Of a DNA stretch of 58,598 bases, positions 4,136-11,037 are shown piece by piece. The first letter of the stretch is position 1, and each line of letters begins with the position of its first letter. A model generated the notes under the pieces. The model searched no databases. It had not been told where the DNA came from and saw only the letters and a program-made list of their open reading frames with translations. Location of the stretch: assembly GCA_964615775.1 (NCBI GenBank), contig CAZTQB010000001.1, positions 1-58,598 of the forward strand, read 5' to 3'. This DNA comes from an uncultured Candidatus Saccharibacteria bacterium. Its GTDB lineage: Bacteria; Patescibacteriota; Saccharimonadia; Saccharimonadales; 2-12-FULL-41-12. The translations under genes were made by a program, and so were the position numbers.

Positions 4136-5065
4136 TTACCTCGCTAGTTGCAATGCACTACGGTTAATGTATTTATTGCACTCAGACACGATATACGAAG
4201 TGAGAAGACGATCAGAAGCCTCGGTGCAGTAATAAGAGAATAGCTCTGTTGGCTGGAGGGTCTGCTTCTCTGTGTATGATTTTACACGCTCTTGCATTAC
4301 AGGGTCTTTACCATAGATAGAGATAAGGTCACTTGTGAGCTTCGTTTTCGTGCCGTCATCAAGCGCCTTGAACCATATATGATGCAGGTACTCATGAGCA
4401 ACGACAACATCGAGAACATTGCCAGTCGTTCCTTGTTTTACGGTCAGTACGCCGTATGACCAGTTGCCAGCTGTGTCGATAAATGCTTGGTACTCACCGG
4501 CCTGTCCGTCAAGAACTTTGTTGTCATAACCAGCAACGAACTTTGTTTCAACCCACTTCATGTCAGATGCGCCGACCTTAGCTAAGGATGCGTTGATTGT
4601 TGCATCAGACTGTAGGTCTGGCTTGAACAGTGTATTGGTCTGTTGCACATTGATTCCTGCGTTAGCAGTAGATACTTGCGGATCAGGAATTACTACCGTG
4701 ACAATCGTGCCGACGATAATGCCAAGCCACATATAGGTACGAAGTACGTTGGCGCTGATCCTATTGAGCGGATTCTTCTTGCGGGACTTGAGCCAGATAA
4801 ACAGATAGCAAACGATAACGAGCACGCCCACATAAATCGACCACAATGCTCGTATATGATAGCCTTGCGGGCTATTCATATTTCCACCATCTACTATGGC
4901 ATTCCCAACGGTAATGGCAATAATAAACGCAACGAAGCCGATGATGAATGGCCAGCCTATGATCCAAAGGATAGCCGAAAGTACCCTGCGCTTACGGGAA
5001 TAAGTCTTTAGCTTATGTTCTGTCTTCTCGATTTTTTCAGTCTTCTCTTTTACTTCGGTCGTCAT
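4136..5065 (-). CDS. Membrane-anchored zincin-like metallopeptidase
   Basis: Three N-terminal TMs; AHEYLH (HExxH) with downstream TELFSY. Start set at 5065 (TATAAT 6 nt upstream). Confidence 0.65.
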   Translation of the reverse strand: MTTEVKEKTEKIEKTEHKLKTYSRKRRVLSAILWIIGWPFIIGFVAFIIAITVGNAIVDGGNMNSPQGYHIRALWSIYVGVLVIVCYLFIWLKSRKKNPLNRISANVLRTYMWLGIIVGTIVTVVIPDPQVSTANAGINVQQTNTLFKPDLQSDATINASLAKVGASDMKWVETKFVAGYDNKVLDGQAGEYQAFIDTAGNWSYGVLTVKQGTTGNVLDVVVAHEYLHHIWFKALDDGTKTKLTSDLISIYGKDPVMQERVKSYTEKQTLQPTELFSYYCTEASDRLLTSYIVSECNKYINRSALQLAR

Positions 5066-5100
5066 GGCTCGATTATACAATAAAAAGTATTATTAATTAA

Positions 5101-5271
5101 TCTCTTCACTTCACGTACTTGTTCATTATACGGGTCGAGCAAACGCATCAAGGTCGTATTCACCCCTGAATACGATTTTCTTTTAATTGATGTATTCAAG
5201 GGGAATCTCCACCTGTGACGCCTTTGCCATGCGACCCCGTCAGATGACTCCGTTACGTAAAGTAAAGGAGA
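5101..5271 (+). promoter_or_regulatory. Long imperfect hairpin 1, Frpo-like ssDNA promoter candidate
   Basis: Arm 5101-5173 is complementary to arm 5192-5271; ATTATA (TATAAT on the minus strand) at 5125-5130 falls opposite a mismatched segment; the hairpin directly precedes the first small gene. Confidence 0.65.
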
Positions 5272-5276
5272 ATATC

Positions 5277-5558
5277 ATGCACGTAGCAGAAGCAACACAA
5301 ACTGTAGCCACCGAGTATAACGGGTGGAGTAATAGAGAGACGTGGTTAGTGAACATGTGGCTCACTAACGACAGATGCTATTACGATGAGCTTTGTGAAA
5401 TCATCAAGAACTTCGATCTTGATGAGCAAGCAGAGGAACTTGAGCGATACGTCCGATTTATCACAGATACCGACAACAGTATCGGTATTGTGGGCGACCT
5501 GCTCAACACTTCTCTCGGTCGAATTGACTGGGTTGAAGTCGTCGCAGCGAACCAGTAG
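5277..5558 (+). CDS. Small phage/MGE-type protein with YNGWSNRETW motif (DUF7249-like)
   Basis: AAGGAG SD at 5265-5270 fixes the start at 5277; the upstream ORF extension runs through the hairpin. Confidence 0.75.
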   Translation: MHVAEATQTVATEYNGWSNRETWLVNMWLTNDRCYYDELCEIIKNFDLDEQAEELERYVRFITDTDNSIGIVGDLLNTSLGRIDWVEVVAANQ

Positions 5559-5563
5559 CGAAA

Positions 5564-5590
5564 TAGTCCCGAGCATGACTAAAACTGCTC
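5564..5590 (+). repeat. Pseudoknot repeat copy 1: TAGTC-CCGAGCAT-GACTA-AAAC-TGCTC
   Basis: S1 TAGTC/GACTA, S2 GAGCA/TGCTC; begins 5 nt after the stop. Confidence 0.85.
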
Positions 5591-5614
5591 AAACTAAGCT
5601 TTAAGGAGGCTGAT

Positions 5615-5812
5615 ATGCGTACAACTGTCATTAGTAAGGAAACAAAAGAACAAATCGAGCGCCATAGGCGGTTCTGGGTGCAAGTCGCAGAACAGCACGA
5701 CTGGTACACCGAGCCTTTCTACATCCAGGTATGGCTTGACGATAAGGGCGATGTAGCCGATAGCGTATCTCACATAGGTATGACATCGGACATCATAATC
5801 CCAAGTCTCTAG
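5615..5812 (+). CDS. Hypothetical 65-aa protein
   Basis: AAGGAGG SD upstream; array context. Confidence 0.8.
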   Translation: MRTTVISKETKEQIERHRRFWVQVAEQHDWYTEPFYIQVWLDDKGDVADSVSHIGMTSDIIIPSL

Positions 5813-5820
5813 CAGATGAC

Positions 5821-5847
5821 CGTCCTGAGCATGACGATAAACTGCTT
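5821..5847 (+). repeat. Pseudoknot repeat copy 2: CGTC-CTGAGCAT-GACG-ATAAAC-TGCTT
   Basis: S1 CGTC/GACG, S2 GAGCA/TGCTT (one G-U); begins 8 nt after the stop. Confidence 0.85.
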
Positions 5848-5886
5848 TTATTGTCATGTTGTACGGAACTGAGTGTGGTCGTGTAA

Positions 5887-6031
5887 GAGGCTTCCTCCCT
5901 CTGTCTTTTCATTATACGGGTGAACCACAAGCCCCAAGGTCGTTCGTCCCTTGGTAAACGTCAAGGGGCGCTCCACCTTGACCCTTGCGGATTCATCCCG
6001 AGCCCTTTTGACAGAGAGGCAGGAAGTCCTC
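5887..6031 (+). promoter_or_regulatory. Long imperfect hairpin 2, Frpo-like ssDNA promoter candidate
   Basis: GAGGCTTCCT..CTCTGTC pairs with GACAGAG..AGGAAGTCCTC. Shares TTCATTATACGGGT, CAAGGTCGT, TCAAGGGG and CTCCACCT with hairpin 1. ATTATA (5911-5916) falls in an internal bubble. Confidence 0.7.
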
Positions 6032-6053
6032 TCGATAAAGCAAGGAGGGTCTT

Positions 6054-6389
6054 ATGGACACCGAAACAATAGCAAACGAAACATCAGCAAAGATTGCTGC
6101 GTTGAATGACGCGGCACGCAGTAATGCTGCGAACTACATGGCGACACGAGGCATCATGTCGCTCGATGAAGTGACTATCAGTGAAATCTTCGTCGCCGTG
6201 CAGGACTTTAGCAAATTCACGGAAGACAACGATCCCTACGGCGAGCATGATTTTGGCTCGTTTACGGTAGCCGGTAACAAAGTCTTTTGGAAGATAGATT
6301 ACTACACACAGGACTTGTCTAGTGGGTGCGATCCGCTAGACCCGGGGTGTAGACGAGTTCTCACTATCATGTTAGCCGAGGAGTACTAG
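6054..6389 (+). CDS. DUF3768-domain protein
   Basis: IAALND..R, F..FTEDNDPYGEHDFG, FWKIDYY and RRVLTIMLAEEY are the DUF3768 pattern. Confidence 0.85.
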   Translation: MDTETIANETSAKIAALNDAARSNAANYMATRGIMSLDEVTISEIFVAVQDFSKFTEDNDPYGEHDFGSFTVAGNKVFWKIDYYTQDLSSGCDPLDPGCRRVLTIMLAEEY

Positions 6390-6403
6390 CTCCTCGGTTT
6401 TTT
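6374..6403 (+). terminator. Intrinsic-terminator-like hairpin with the stop codon in its loop
   Basis: CCGAGGAG-TACTAG-CTCCTCGG followed by TTTTTT. Confidence 0.6.
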
Positions 6404-6998: not shown

Positions 6999-7304
6999 AT
7001 GAAGATTAGTGAAAATATCCTACGAGAAGAATATAGCTACCGTGGCGGCGGTTGCGAGCTGGACTTGACTGAGTTTGGCTACGAAGATGAGCTTTTGAGT
7101 GCTTACCAGAATTATCTAGGTGGTGGCATGCTTGGCTCGATTGGCAATAGCTGTACTGTCGAGGATTGGCGGCAAGATGAGAAACTCATTAAGCTAGCAC
7201 ATGAGCTGCGAGAATACTATCAGGATCGGATGTATGAGTTCGAGTGTATCGACGAATATAACGAGATAACTGAGGGGCGACCCATCAGCTATCCAGGGCT
7301 GTAA
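6999..7304 (+). CDS. Hypothetical 101-aa highly acidic protein
   Basis: AAGGAG SD; very rich in E, D and Y. Confidence 0.8.
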   Translation: MKISENILREEYSYRGGGCELDLTEFGYEDELLSAYQNYLGGGMLGSIGNSCTVEDWRQDEKLIKLAHELREYYQDRMYEFECIDEYNEITEGRPISYPGL

Positions 7305-7312
7305 GCAGCCCT

Positions 7313-7339
7313 CATCCTGAGTAAGATGTAAAACTACTC
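7313..7339 (+). repeat. Pseudoknot repeat copy 5: CATC-CTGAGTAA-GATG-TAAAAC-TACTC
   Basis: S1 CATC/GATG and S2 GAGTA/TACTC; both stems show compensatory changes. Confidence 0.85.
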
Positions 7340-7709
7340 ATCAGGAACAGGCACACTGGCCGCACCATGCAACATAGCCCTTTGGGCTAGTTGCATCGTC
7401 CGTCCAGCTCAAGCAGCAGATAACGACACGCTCCATACTTACCCCCTCGGACTATCACATGCGTCCCGCAGTGAAGTCCTCGTGTGCAAGAATGAATCAT
7501 GTCCTGGACGTACCTCTGGTACGACATCGGTTAATAATTAAATGGTTAGTCACCATCAAGCACGACGGGCGGCACGTATTCTCCTCTGGAGAAAACGTAC
7601 ACACCCGACGCACTCGCTGGCAACAAAGGCTCGTGATAGATCAAACAAGCGTGACCATGACACGACGCAAGCTTACGCGTCATCGTCACGCTATCCTCAT
7701 ATCCGTAAA
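7340..7709. other. Hairpin-rich non-coding region, candidate oriT or replication origin
   Basis: Inverted repeats at 7367-7396 (ATGCAAC.TAGCCC/GGGCTAGTTGCAT) and 7648-7692 (AGCGTGAC/GTCACGCT), between the small-gene array and the relaxase-family gene. Confidence 0.4.
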
Positions 7710-8495
7710 CTAATCGAAAAGCGCAGTCTGTTTTTTCGGGTTAAAGGGGGAAGACCAGATATGTGCGGCTGGTTTGTCGAATGCCGTGAGTGCTGAGGCG
7801 AGTATCGGCAGTTCACCCTCATCCATGCCCATGCCCTCTAGCTTCTTGTTTGTGGTATAGAGAAAGCTGAACTTTGCGGCGCTATCTTTTAAGACAAAAC
7901 ATATATGGGGATAGTTATCACCCTCCCAGCTTTCATCTTCGCTATGCGTGATAATTTCATCGAGGCGCTTGCGGACTATATATGGTGGCTTATCATCGGC
8001 AATGACTACAATAGCCTCTTTACCGTCTGGTGTGCGTATGTAGAGGTCTGGACGGTTTTTGGGGAATTGTCGGAAACGGTTGATCTCGGTCTTTGAGAAC
8101 ACGGCCGAGTCTTTAGGCAGGTATTTGATAATAGCCGTGTAGCATTGTATGAGCTTCATGCTATGACTAACGAAATCATCAGTCATTTCATCATTCTTGT
8201 ACAGGGCATGTACAACAGACTCTTTGACATCCATGAGCTTGCGGACGGCCGTAACGCCGCTTTTATTCAGGTAATAATAGGCAGGCTTTCTATCAATACG
8301 GAACTTCGGCTCATAGACTTTTGCCACTAACTTTTTACTAACTAATTGCTCTAATACTTCATAGACACTGACCCTATGAATACCCATAACATCTGCTAAT
8401 AATCCTGCTGATACAAATCGAAACTTGAATAATAACTTTAAGACACGTTGCTGCTGACCTGTTAGTTTTTGACCTTTTACATCTCCATCCATCAC
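7710..8495 (-). CDS. Replication-relaxation family protein (Replic_Relax-like)
   Basis: N-terminal wHTH (LT..QQRVLKLLFKFRFVS..LLA), YYL...G, conserved H (FVSHS) and RPDLY. Confidence 0.75.
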   Translation of the reverse strand: MMDGDVKGQKLTGQQQRVLKLLFKFRFVSAGLLADVMGIHRVSVYEVLEQLVSKKLVAKVYEPKFRIDRKPAYYYLNKSGVTAVRKLMDVKESVVHALYKNDEMTDDFVSHSMKLIQCYTAIIKYLPKDSAVFSKTEINRFRQFPKNRPDLYIRTPDGKEAIVVIADDKPPYIVRKRLDEIITHSEDESWEGDNYPHICFVLKDSAAKFSFLYTTNKKLEGMGMDEGELPILASALTAFDKPAAHIWSSPFNPKKQTALFD

Positions 8496-8711
8496 TACTT
8501 CTCTCTCCTATACGTAGTATATATAAAGGGAGAGTAAATGTATAGCTTCTGTATCTGTTAGTAAATACCTATTTACCTGCTATGCACAGTAGGTAAATTA
8601 TACATCAAGATATTGGGTAATTAGTATTGCTTTTTATTTTAATTAGTAATACTATTTATATAGAGGTTGTACATTAATAATTCGGCTAGTTACAGGTAAA
8701 AAGGAGGGGGT

Positions 8712-8864
8712 ATGATTGACAGAGAATTACTCGAAAAAGAAGCAATGGCGGAAGTGTGTGCGTGCTGGTATTACGACCTAGCGGACACGCTTTATGAGAC
8801 ACCAGACAGCGACTTACAGGTTATCGTTAGCCATTCACATAAATGTGAGACTTGTGGCCATTAA
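8712..8864 (+). CDS. Unannotated 50-aa Cys/His-rich protein
   Basis: AAGGAGG SD at 8701-8707; translation MIDRELLEKEAMAEVCACWYYDLADTLYETPDSDLQVIVSHSHKCETCGH. Confidence 0.65.
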   Translation: MIDRELLEKEAMAEVCACWYYDLADTLYETPDSDLQVIVSHSHKCETCGH

Positions 8865-9169: not shown

Positions 9170-9394
9170 ATGGATCGCAACAGTACAAACAATTCGCAGG
9201 AAGTCGCCGCAGGCTTCTACTCTCCGAGTGAGGAGCAGATTGTATTGCTGCAATCTATATTGCAGAAAGAATCACATGAATCAGTTTCGCTCAAAGAAGC
9301 GCAGGAGGTGGGCATACAGCTCGTGTCACTCTACGAGTGTCTGGCAAGGGATAGGACGCCCCCTATTGGAGTAAGAGGAAATGATGAATCCTGA
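9170..9394 (+). CDS. Small protein overlapping the recombinase start; putative recombination directionality factor
   Basis: GGAGG SD; coupled to the recombinase. The RDF role is inferred from position only. Confidence 0.55.
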   Translation: MDRNSTNNSQEVAAGFYSPSEEQIVLLQSILQKESHESVSLKEAQEVGIQLVSLYECLARDRTPPIGVRGNDES

Positions 9395-10880
9395 TGAAAT
9401 AGGCGTTATTCTCGCTCGTGTCTCAACTAAGGGGCAGGAAGATGAGGGTTATTCGCTTGAGGCTCAGGTTAAAAATCTGAGGATGTATTGTACGAATACG
9501 CGAATCAATCCGATTAAAGTCTTCAAGATTGCTGAGTCCGCATCAAAGACTGAGCAGCGCAAGATATTCAAAGAAGCCATGCAGTTTGTGGAGAAAAAAC
9601 ACGTTAAGAACCTCATTGTCGAAAAGGTAGACCGCCATGTGCGCAATCTGCATGATGCGGTCGAGACGCATGACTGGCTCACTAAAGACGAGACGAGAAA
9701 AGTACACTTCGTTAAAGATGCAATTGTTCTACATAAAAACTCTCGATCTCAAGAGTGGCTTAACTGGGGTATGCGTGTCGTTCTTGCTAAGAACTACATC
9801 GATAACCTACGTGAAGAAGCCATGAAAGGATGGGCCGAAAAACTAGCGCAAGGCTGGATGCCAGCACCACCACCCCCAGGCTATATGACCGTTGTTCGCG
9901 ATGGTAAGCGTATTCACGACTTCAACCCCGAAACCTACAAGTCTATGCAGCGAATTTTTCAGCTCATGCTTGAACCTCAGTACACCATAGAAACGATCCG
10001 TCATAAAATGACAGAGTTTGGGCTGGTGACCGGTAAAGGCAGACCATTCTCCAAGAGCCATGCACATAGAATACTGACAAATCCATTCTACATAGGAACC
10101 ATTCGCTTTAATGGCAACGAATACCCAGGTAAGCAGCCACACCTGATATCCGAAGAGCTGTTTAATGCAGTACAAGCCAAAATCTCACGCAAACGACCTG
10201 CGAAGTATCGCAAGCACAACCCATTACTCAAGGGTGTAATGATCTGTGAACACTGTGGCAAGAACATTACGTGGCAGCTCCAGAAAGGCCGATTGTACGG
10301 CTCATGTCAGCGTAAGTTAGAGGCTTGCAAGAAACAGAGCTTTGTCCGCGAAGATGCCGTCCTAGAGCTTATCCAAGGCAAGCTGGACGAACTTATCTGC
10401 CCATCTCCTGAGGTTATAACGTGGCTGACGACGTTACTGCATCAAGACTTCCAACTGTCAGTCAACAACGTCGAAGAGGCCCAGAAAGCCCTTGACGAGC
10501 GAATTGAGCGTATCAAGCGGATGGATGACATGCTGTATGACGATAAGCTGGCCGGACTTATTTCTGGCGAGCGCTATCAGAGTAAGCATGATTCATTCAT
10601 TAGTGAAATTAATGATCTGCAAAAGCAGAAAGGAGGCATAAGCCAAGAATACGAAACTAAGTACATGAATGGGATATCCGAGATAGAGCTGTCACAGGAC
10701 GCTAAACGGCTATTCGCAGACGAAAATACAAGCAGTGACGACAAACGAATAATTTTAACCAAACTATTCGAGAAGATCAGCCTAAAAGACAATTCCGTAT
10801 CTGTTACGTACACCAAACTGACACAGGCAATAGCTCGAAATAGCGGTTTAAGTAAGGAGATTTTGGGATATGCAAAATAA
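9381..10880 (+). CDS. Large serine recombinase (integrase)
   Basis: Catalytic ARVST..Q...GYSLEAQ, EKVDR..R, recombinase domain, zinc ribbon (CEHCG...C..C) and coiled coil. Confidence 0.95.
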   Translation: MMNPDEIGVILARVSTKGQEDEGYSLEAQVKNLRMYCTNTRINPIKVFKIAESASKTEQRKIFKEAMQFVEKKHVKNLIVEKVDRHVRNLHDAVETHDWLTKDETRKVHFVKDAIVLHKNSRSQEWLNWGMRVVLAKNYIDNLREEAMKGWAEKLAQGWMPAPPPPGYMTVVRDGKRIHDFNPETYKSMQRIFQLMLEPQYTIETIRHKMTEFGLVTGKGRPFSKSHAHRILTNPFYIGTIRFNGNEYPGKQPHLISEELFNAVQAKISRKRPAKYRKHNPLLKGVMICEHCGKNITWQLQKGRLYGSCQRKLEACKKQSFVREDAVLELIQGKLDELICPSPEVITWLTTLLHQDFQLSVNNVEEAQKALDERIERIKRMDDMLYDDKLAGLISGERYQSKHDSFISEINDLQKQKGGISQEYETKYMNGISEIELSQDAKRLFADENTSSDDKRIILTKLFEKISLKDNSVSVTYTKLTQAIARNSGLSKEILGYAK

Positions 10881-10962: not shown

Positions 10963-11037
10963 TGGCTGGGAGTGAGGGATTCGAACCCCCGAATGCCAGG
11001 ACCAAAACCTGGTGCCTTACCACTTGGCCAACTCCCA
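10963..11037 (-). tRNA. tRNA-Gln (anticodon UUG)
   Basis: Minus strand TGGGAGT acceptor stem, anticodon arm CCAGG-TTTTGGT-CCTGG, GTTCGAATC T-loop and encoded CCA. Confidence 0.97.

Follow-up and report, generated by a model that had tools for sequence, protein, structure and literature searches.

Promoters that act on single-stranded DNA (ssDNA) have been demonstrated experimentally in the F plasmid (Frpo1 and Frpo2) and in IncI1 plasmids (PMC9849209; PMC12672017; PMC11541004). These Frpo/ssi (single-strand initiation) stem-loops are inactive once the DNA is duplex, and they can also prime DNA synthesis (PMC9849209; PMC11541004; PMC10085688). In pESBL, there are three mutually non-homologous classes of ssDNA promoters, whose start sites were confirmed by 5′ rapid amplification of cDNA ends (PMC12672017). 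Thus, this kind of promoter contains several unrelated sequence classes. In the literature that was searched, the experimental examples come from enterobacterial F and IncI plasmids only, and no paper on ssDNA promoters in the candidate phyla radiation (CPR) was found. Here we describe two hairpins on a genomic island of an uncultured Candidatus Saccharibacteria bacterium (Patescibacteriota; assembly GCA_964615775.1, contig CAZTQB010000001.1). The whole stretch of 58,598 nucleotides (nt) that was analyzed is called the window. Each hairpin probably is a promoter that exists only while the minus strand of the island is single-stranded, and we lean towards regarding the two as members of a new, non-homologous class of Frpo-like ssDNA promoter, possibly used as a priming site too.

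Folded nucleic acids are read by, or presented to, host RNA polymerase in several other systems. At the minus-strand origin of Ff phages, hairpins of the packaged ssDNA mimic a promoter, and host sigma-70 RNA polymerase makes a complementary RNA there. The single-strand origins (sso) of rolling-circle plasmids and of ICEBs1 are orientation-specific ssDNA hairpins at which host RNA polymerase primes lagging-strand synthesis, and they matter after conjugation. In 6S RNA, an apical stem, a central bubble and a closing stem are arranged as in an open promoter, with the non-template side on the 3′ arm, and the holoenzyme binds this mimic.

Like the Frpo/ssi stem-loops of class 1 (F, ColIb-P9 and pESBL), each window hairpin is a stable stem-loop in the template strand of the downstream genes. 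As modeled, it would rebuild a -35 and a -10 element at promoter spacing, 1–2 nt under the optimum, pointing into co-oriented small and putatively early genes. A rebuilt -35/-10 pair upstream of leading-region operons is also the arrangement of class 2 (ardA/klcA) and class 3 (M.EcoGIX) of pESBL. Compared with class 1, the window hairpins are half as big (~150–170 vs. ~330 nt), an A/T-rich UP-like apex is missing, a conserved head (GTCAAGGTGGAG...ACNACCTTGA) characterizes their family, which occurs in Patescibacteria and in further lineages outside the enterobacteria, and the downstream genes encode DUF3768, DUF7249 or ArdC-N-like proteins, not ssb, psiB or ardA products. Homologous membership in class 1, taken as similarity to the five reference Frpo/ssi sequences (the criterion of Samuel et al. 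2024), was ruled out by blastn and by R2, a covariance model of the core of the new family. By blastn, Frpo1–3, ssiD and ssiE gave just chance matches of 8–14 nt; with word size 7, matches to the reference sequences were 8–10 nt long (E ≥ 0.4). R2, run with filters off, had no match in M13 or in 28 kb of the ColIb-P9 leading region, in which ardA and the antirestriction genes are included. Because no match appeared across that leading region, the window family is taken as a further class. Homology to the M13/f1 intergenic hairpins [B] and [C] was rejected as well, by R2 and by a blastn search against the M13 intergenic region (no homology, E ≥ 0.1).

The fold, its conservation and covariation, the folding strand, the promoter-like conservation pattern and the gene association were established in silico. 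The two hairpins, at 5101–5271 and 5886–6032, are imperfect palindromes homologous to each other. They share a 14-mer, TTCATTATACGGGT, at 5122 and 5908, which has exactly two copies in the whole 58.6-kb window, and the blocks CAAGGTCGT (5149 and 5935) and CTCCACCT (5207 and 5971). Both stop just short of a Shine-Dalgarno (SD) sequence and the ATG of a plus-strand gene (5277 and 6054). As ssDNA, the minus strand of 5095–5275 folds with -35.3 kcal/mol (shuffles -17.5 ± 3.0; z -6.0; 0/200 as good), and that of 5880–6040 with -37.5 kcal/mol (z -5.6; again 0/200). The plus strand folds more weakly in both regions, with -27.4 and -34.1 kcal/mol, respectively. The original prediction, made from the sequence alone, had described homologous palindromes with shared blocks, each before an SD-led gene, and had the minus strand folding as ssDNA. 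All of its blocks were recovered in place, and the check by folding gave the z values above.

When the minus strand folds, TATAAT lies on the 3′ arm and would therefore serve as the non-template strand. With TATAAT in this role, RNA synthesis should run towards the base of the hairpin and copy the 5′ arm, so that the product would be plus-sense RNA of the downstream genes. In hairpin 2, TATAATGAAAA forms 11 unpaired nt opposite 9 unpaired, non-complementary bases. In hairpin 1, three of the six TATAAT bases are unpaired in the minimum-free-energy (MFE) fold. The start was mapped in the MFE fold as the template base opposite the seventh nucleotide after the -10 element. On the plus strand of hairpin 2, TTGACC (5978–5983) is followed after 17 nt by AGCCCT (6001–6006), and a consensus scan found no canonical plus-strand promoter ahead of 5277 or 6054. 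Since the plus strand has no usable -10, the duplex should be silent towards the genes; judged by its hexamers, the duplex form appears to hold no promoter in that direction, which is what is expected of an ssDNA promoter.

The geometry in the original prediction withstood this analysis. TTGACC and AGCCCT stand at the positions and the distance it gave, and its starts near 5250 and 6012 agree with the mapped ~5253 and ~6011. Its argument that the ssDNA fold sends transcription into the plus-strand genes is upheld, and the comparative data below agree with it. One detail had to be corrected: TTGACC is only the plus-strand complement of the pairing partner of the -35 element, and the -35 itself is on the TATAAT arm (TTGATG in hairpin 1, TTGGGG in hairpin 2). 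TATAAT had been placed in a mismatch bubble of the folded minus strand, which is true of the entire hexamer in copy 2 and of just half of it in copy 1.

Relatives of the window hairpins are found in other Patescibacteria. Among 80 fetched loci that encode DUF3768 relatives, 10 contain the exact core ATTATACGGG. A MAFFT alignment of type 1 (as hairpin 1) together with type 2 (as hairpin 2) misaligned the lower stems, so that type 2 (A3) and the shared core (A6) served as the basis of the models. The covariance model R1, built from eight type-2 copies, gave 56 minus-strand matches, 52 of them distinct, in ~45 Patescibacteria loci, Berkelbacteria included. All of these matches are co-oriented with the downstream gene, and type 2 is always ahead of a DUF3768 gene and type 1 ahead of a DUF7249 gene. 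Start codons lie about -7 to 77 nt from where the model match ends; values below zero come from the type-1 match, which takes in flanking sequence. None of the R1 matches lies in a proteobacterial DUF3768 locus, and on alphaproteobacterial DUF3768 loci and plasmids, R1 and R2 found no family member.

Covariation was computed on 31 distinct best matches. Bases are paired in 93.3% of the cells, vs. 35–51% when the partners are slid by 1–3 columns. Changes on both sides have occurred in 28 of the 40 pairs, covering all helices, and in 12 of 16 pairs in the lower stem around the -10 and the predicted start, and none of 500 shuffles reaches any of the observed covariation measures. The hairpin structure is under selection. 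The paired columns hold 83 G.T pairs vs. 8 A.C oppositions, which are the would-be wobble pairs of the opposite strand. Alignment-free energies favor the minus strand over the plus strand for 49 of 52 copies (Wilcoxon p 7e-10), as they do for 94 of the 102 metagenome copies introduced below (p 1e-17). From the G.T excess and the stability of the minus strand, it follows that the selected structure belongs to the template strand of the downstream genes. A structure in the plus-strand mRNA leader is ruled out by the same asymmetry of 83 vs. 8.

The bases that are conserved in this structure are those of a promoter-like element. The -10 block is unpaired and reads T (50/50), A (48/50), T/C, A (44/50), A/C and T (49/50), the hexamer being TATAAT in 22 copies, TATACT in 10, TACAAT in 7 and others in the rest. 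This profile follows the TAnnnT rule of sigma-70-type -10 elements. At least three bases of the -10 are unpaired in 37 of 47 MFE folds. The -35 block is paired and reads T (51/51), T (51/51), G (49/51) and A (46/51). Between the two blocks, the spacer is 15 nt in 30 copies and 16 nt in 19, and its sequence is free to vary yet covaries with the opposite arm. In the head, above the -35, a G.N and an A.A opposition are conserved. Rfam 15 was also searched: at gathering thresholds only a tRNA matches in the window, and E-value searches of 5000–6150 and of 20 related loci gave noise only.

The conserved head goes on past the -35 as GTCAAGGTGGAG, a loop of 7 to ~60 nt, and then AC(G/T)ACCTTGA. A search pattern of this head plus TAnnnT, for which few chance matches are expected by a rough estimate of our own, occurs in at least 120 JGI/ENA metagenome stretches (contig G+C 0.29–0.72) and in 11 IMG/VR contigs; the exact two-block pattern of the window copies has 0 matches in IMG/VR. 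A lower stem, formed between the 5′ flank and the region that follows the -10, is present in 85 of the 102 metagenome copies. R2 scores these copies at 40–69 bits, and several loci have a second copy on the same strand. The free hexamer positions are A-rich even in G+C-rich contigs (TACAAT 28, TATAAT 14, TAAAAT 12), and some high-GC members have TAGCGT at the -10 position, which may be coincidence. In a G+C-rich soil contig (L155), copies at 194–282 and 2240–2322 flank an MNT/HEPN toxin-antitoxin pair. Four pattern matches (L199, L211, L214 and L216) were rejected, as they lie within a 358-aa open reading frame (ORF) of unrelated low-GC contigs, have no hairpin context and score low with R2.

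The association with genes was counted in a low-GC set (G+C < 0.5), which was selected by the pattern and blind to genes. An SD-led gene lies in the predicted (ssDNA) direction in 23 of 38 loci, vs. 8 of 42 in the ordinary duplex direction. In six more low-GC loci, an SD-less gene for 97–111 aa lies in the predicted direction; one 98-aa protein of these was scanned and matches the N-terminal domain of ArdC (PF08401), an anti-restriction protein, and tblastn of it against PLSDB gave no match. The recurrent downstream families are DUF3768, DUF7249, the ArdC-N-like proteins, and a small CxxC protein related to that encoded at 8712–8864 of the window.

A low-GC subgroup (L098, L105, L106, L185 and L191, and L212, L213 and L217–L219 from IMG/VR) has a common gene layout with the hairpin and resembles inoviruses. 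Pfam scans detected a G2P-type rolling-circle Rep in L098 and L106, with L098 also encoding a serine recombinase and a Zot-type assembly ATPase; the remaining members were grouped by ORF layout and hairpin sequence alone. In these loci all large genes are on the folding strand, the hairpin is just upstream of rep, and the sole antisense gene, the ArdC-N-like one, sits in the predicted direction of synthesis. In M13, all genes are on the deposited strand, which is the viral strand. By analogy, the folding strand of the inovirus-like relatives is presumably the packaged strand. A hairpin upstream of rep on the gene-sense strand is at the site expected for a minus-strand origin read by host RNA polymerase, and in this the relatives are like the Ff origin. 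M13, however, reads no gene from that RNA, whereas here the polymerase would next meet an SD-led or ArdC-N-like gene. This suggests that in the inovirus-like relatives the primer transcript doubles as mRNA. The likeness to sso elements (ssoA, ssoU and others) is that of an orientation-specific ssDNA hairpin; the signature motifs of sso elements are RSB and CS-6. To our knowledge, sso elements do not drive genes, unlike the role that is proposed for the window hairpins.

We infer how RNA polymerase would bind and start on the hairpins, that expression would be confined to ssDNA, that the minus strand is the one that becomes single-stranded, and by which routes. It could do so during rolling-circle replication, or when the DNA arrives by conjugation or in a filamentous virion. 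The palindrome would then fold, and its upper stem would rebuild a duplex -35 (TTGAY paired with GTCAA). The covarying spacer helix of 15–16 nt would fix the distance to the -10, where the internal loop would offer an unpaired TATAAT in non-template sense, equal to a pre-melted -10. Host sigma-A/sigma-70 holoenzyme could bind such a structure without melting and start ~7 nt downstream. The polymerase would copy the 5′ arm, leave the base of the hairpin and continue on the single strand beyond. Plus-sense mRNA from ~5253 would code for DUF7249 and the 65-aa protein, and that from ~6011 for DUF3768, ending at the terminator at 6374–6399. The hairpin RNA may also prime synthesis of the complementary strand. 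Once this strand is made, the hairpin would be gone and the genes off; the plus strand keeps TTGACC but has AGCCCT in the place of the -10, so that the genes should switch off in the duplex.

A broader proposal is put forward tentatively, and we find it rather doubtful: that the family is a cross-phylum module sensing ssDNA vs. double-stranded DNA (dsDNA), common to mobilisable islands and filamentous-phage-like elements, which in ssDNA would recruit host RNA polymerase by its conserved head and open TAnnnT, fire one or a few antisense early genes for candidate anti-defence or ssDNA-handling proteins (DUF3768, DUF7249, ArdC-N-like) and at once prime the complementary strand, and whose hexamers in the duplex would face rep or structural genes.

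Several points weigh against the hairpins being ssDNA promoters of this kind. Half of TATAAT is paired in copy 1, and in copy 2 the -35 is weak (TTGGGG). The spacer of 15–16 nt in the family is below the 17-nt optimum. The -35 and -10 were judged by a sigma-70-type consensus, which may not be that of the Saccharibacteria RNA polymerase. High-GC members have no consistent gene in the predicted direction (12/53), a count in which length-based ORF calling is too noisy to settle orientation, and in at least one G+C-rich soil contig (L089) a DUF932 gene encoded on the folding strand points into the hairpin. As to the island, the match of its relaxase candidate to Replic_Relax is marginal (27.8 bits vs. 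a cut-off of 25.3), and this gene converges on the putative leading genes, unlike the arrangement in ColIb-P9. The island also codes for an FtsK-like motor, and such motors can move dsDNA (Streptomyces TraB type), so that an ssDNA entry step is not assured.

It is improbable, though it is the best reading for some high-GC members, that the hairpins are only priming sites for RNA polymerase (ssi, sso or minus-strand origin), with the adjacent genes incidental and served by other promoters. Precedents for priming are Frpo, which was discovered as an ssi signal, and the Ff minus-strand origin, where host RNA polymerase reads a hairpin that resembles a promoter (see also PMC10085688). The hairpin of the inovirus-like relatives is just upstream of rep, as a minus-strand origin would be. 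The inconsistent downstream genes of the high-GC members and the DUF932 gene reading into the L089 hairpin point the same way. However, there are two copies per element, each 17–47 nt from the SD-led start codon of a recurrent family, and the link to a gene start is seen in 51 of 52 CPR copies and in ~29 of 38 unbiased low-GC copies. Ahead of these genes there is no other promoter on the plus strand, and a terminator directly follows DUF3768. Priming and transcription can moreover coexist. In the window and among low-GC members, the close and repeated association of the hairpin with gene starts speaks for transcription in addition to priming. A different possibility is that TTGAnn-15/16-TAnnnT is an ordinary promoter of the duplex that points leftward, the palindrome being an operator or a by-product. 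The -10 of hairpin 1 does lie 60 nt upstream of a minus-strand gene (4136–5065), and several relatives have a gene 60–100 nt downstream that way, such as the inovirus-like rep; with a gene so close to hairpin 1, a second use in the duplex state is possible. This is very unlikely to be the function of the family, since a leftward gene is absent from hairpin 2 and from most type-2 copies (present in 8/42 of the unbiased low-GC set), and a covarying lower stem, which pairs the sequence after the -10 with that before the -35, is needless in a duplex promoter. The excess of G.T over A.C means that pairing within one strand has been selected for, the spacer falls short of the optimum, and a promoter scan with 16–18 nt finds nothing. 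A palindromic operator was ruled out by the distance between half-sites, which varies from 7 to ~60 nt, a range that a dimeric operator would not allow.

The folding strand is antisense to the genes, and a structured minus-sense RNA might act as an antisense regulator of the downstream gene start or as a 6S-like mimic of an open promoter, the topology of which the hairpins match. Each downstream gene would then have to contain a promoter for this RNA in its 5′ coding region; none was seen there, and the genes belong to different families. TTGA and TAnnnT conserved at promoter spacing are, moreover, a prediction of DNA recognition by sigma, 6S RNA lacks base-specific -35 and -10 hexamers, and the hairpins have no match in Rfam 15, 6S included, so that a minus-sense RNA is given very little credence. 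Equally remote in our judgment is a DNA site recognized by a protein, either a relaxase or Rep nick site (origin of transfer, oriT, or double-strand origin, dso) or an attC-type recombination site that acts in folded form. The hairpins are on a mobile element near a relaxase-like gene, and the L155 copies around the toxin-antitoxin pair resemble a gene cassette. Against this, the two copies per element are each tied to a gene start, and the conserved bases, as far as they can be read from sequence, match promoter hexamers and not known nick or attC cores. The family spans neighborhoods with Replic_Relax, G2P Rep and tyrosine integrase genes, and a better origin candidate exists in the window at 7305–7709.

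Earlier searches outside the F and IncI plasmids leaned on BLAST to the sequences of those plasmids. What is new here is a comparatively supported family, resting on covariation, strand asymmetry and the -10-like conservation, that shares no sequence with the known classes and lends itself to covariance-model searches. If the hairpins are ssDNA promoters, the distribution of such promoters would be wider, extending to Patescibacteria, in which DNA transfer by type IV secretion systems (T4SS) is itself still debated, and to inovirus-like elements. DUF3768 and DUF7249 become candidates for roles in early establishment or anti-defence. An element of 150 nt with predicted starts is experimentally simple to address. 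Should the doubtful proposal of a cross-phylum module turn out to be true, ssDNA entry and zygotic gene expression in Patescibacteria would become directly accessible for the first time, and there would be a first example of transcription of a gene directly from the genome of an inovirus-like element as it comes in.

Table 1. Hairpins, promoter-like elements and neighboring features in the window
Feature	Position	Strand	Remarks
Hairpin 1 (type 1)	5101-5271	minus (folding strand)	~170-nt imperfect palindrome; matches R1 (E 1e-6) and R2 (E 2e-11)
TATAAT (-10, non-template sense) of hairpin 1	5125-5130	minus	from sequence and family column profile
TTGATG (-35) of hairpin 1	5146-5151	minus	paired in upper stem, 15 nt from -10
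Conserved head, 5′ arm (GTCACAGGTGGAG) of hairpin 1	5207-5219	minus	pairs with -35
Predicted start, hairpin 1	5253 (± 2 nt)	plus	predicted from MFE fold; 5′ untranslated region ~24 nt
Hairpin 2 (type 2)	5886-6032	minus (folding strand)	~147-nt imperfect palindrome; R1 171 bits, R2 61 bits
TATAAT (-10) of hairpin 2	5911-5916	minus	wholly within internal loop of 11 x 9 nt
TTGGGG (-35 position) of hairpin 2	5932-5937	minus	most relatives TTGATG or TTGACG; 15 nt upstream of TATAAT
Conserved head, 5′ arm (GTCAAGGTGGAG) of hairpin 2	5971-5982	minus	plus-strand complement includes TTGACC
Predicted start, hairpin 2	6011 (± 2 nt)	plus	predicted from MFE fold; 5′ untranslated region ~43 nt
DUF7249 gene (93 aa)	5277-5558	plus	PF23907, E 4e-11; SD AAGGAG at 5265-5270
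65-aa gene, second of hairpin-1 unit	5615-5812	plus	no family match; homologues in 13 related loci
DUF3768 gene (111 aa)	6054-6389	plus	PF12599, E 2e-28; SD AAGGAGG at 6042-6048
Intrinsic-terminator-like stem and T-run	6374-6399	plus	closes DUF3768 unit
Structured non-coding gap	7305-7709 (405 nt)	minus	candidate origin (oriT or rolling-circle), putative role
Replic_Relax-like gene (relaxase/Rep candidate)	7710-8495	minus	PF13814, E 3e-6; convergent with putatively hairpin-driven genes
Large serine recombinase	9381-10880	plus	abuts tRNA; right end of island
tRNA	10966-11037	minus	anticodon loop reads UUG

The window is chromosomal. The island that carries the hairpins covers positions 1 to ~10.9 kb and has a higher G+C (0.42–0.48 vs. 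0.37–0.40), and from ~11 kb rightwards there are housekeeping genes, including those for PheT, UvrB, DnaE, GatA/B and BipA. Past its left edge, the window gives way to a further part of the island (L081 and L082), with a gene for a 282-aa, motor-only FtsK/SpoIIIE protein. The island also codes for a ribbon-helix-helix (RHH) protein and, on the minus strand, for several small membrane proteins in a row (DUF4190, DUF2569) and for a KTSC protein. Among its proteins there is no Zot or G2P match, and most of its genes are on the folding strand. From gene content, the serine recombinase, the Replic_Relax-like gene and the FtsK/SpoIIIE motor fit a mobile element with an ssDNA stage, which may be either a mobilisable island or a filamentous-phage-like element. 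The Replic_Relax profile presumably detects MOBC relaxases. In Patescibacteria, MOBC relaxases are the commonest ones, often encoded beside t4cp genes, and T4SS genes are widespread (PMC12102498). The Replic_Relax-like gene is a conserved neighbor of the hairpin-DUF3768 pair in 42 related loci, in 39 of which it is convergent, and in some relatives (L008) just ~54 nt separate it from DUF3768. In the window, the gap at 7305–7709 is flanked by this gene and by the convergent plus-strand gene at 6999–7304. As minus-strand ssDNA, the gap folds with -89.7 vs. -54.1 kcal/mol for shuffles (z -8.7) and forms five strong hairpins. It separates the relaxase-like gene and the FtsK-like motor from the putatively hairpin-driven genes.

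The terminator-like element at 6374–6399 has an 11-bp GC-rich stem followed by TTTTTT and overlaps the stop codon of DUF3768, so that DUF3768 would be a one-gene transcription unit. At the base of hairpin 2, the plus strand (5886–5910) has a small stem, AGAGG...CCTCT, followed by GTCTTTTC, which could be a terminator for transcripts from the 5277–5812 unit. Farther right on the plus strand is the gene for the 50-aa CxxC protein (8712–8864), a homologue of which is encoded directly downstream of a family hairpin in another locus (L133). A third hairpin upstream of 8712 was considered and rejected, because 8490–8715 folds no better than shuffles (z -0.6).

PDB sequence searches with the DUF3768, DUF7249 and Replic_Relax-like proteins yielded nothing useful. 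The DUF3768 protein of the window has 100% identical copies in two Saccharibacteria metagenome-assembled genomes. DUF3768 is also encoded on 459 PLSDB plasmids, 239 of which are typed conjugative, and on a Phaeobacter plasmid it is found in an island with parB-like, ssb and umuC-like genes. A look-alike hairpin that is not homologous to the family was seen on the minus strand of the Phaeobacter gallaeciensis plasmid pP75_f (MOBP; L206, 19570–19750), between ssb and a small gene. It has TTGACG in a stem, 15 nt, and then TAGAGT, folds with -48.9 kcal/mol (z -5.5) and scores only 15 bits with R2, and its lower stem covers the SD sequence of the next small gene. As modeled, this hairpin is likely an ssDNA promoter on an alphaproteobacterial plasmid.

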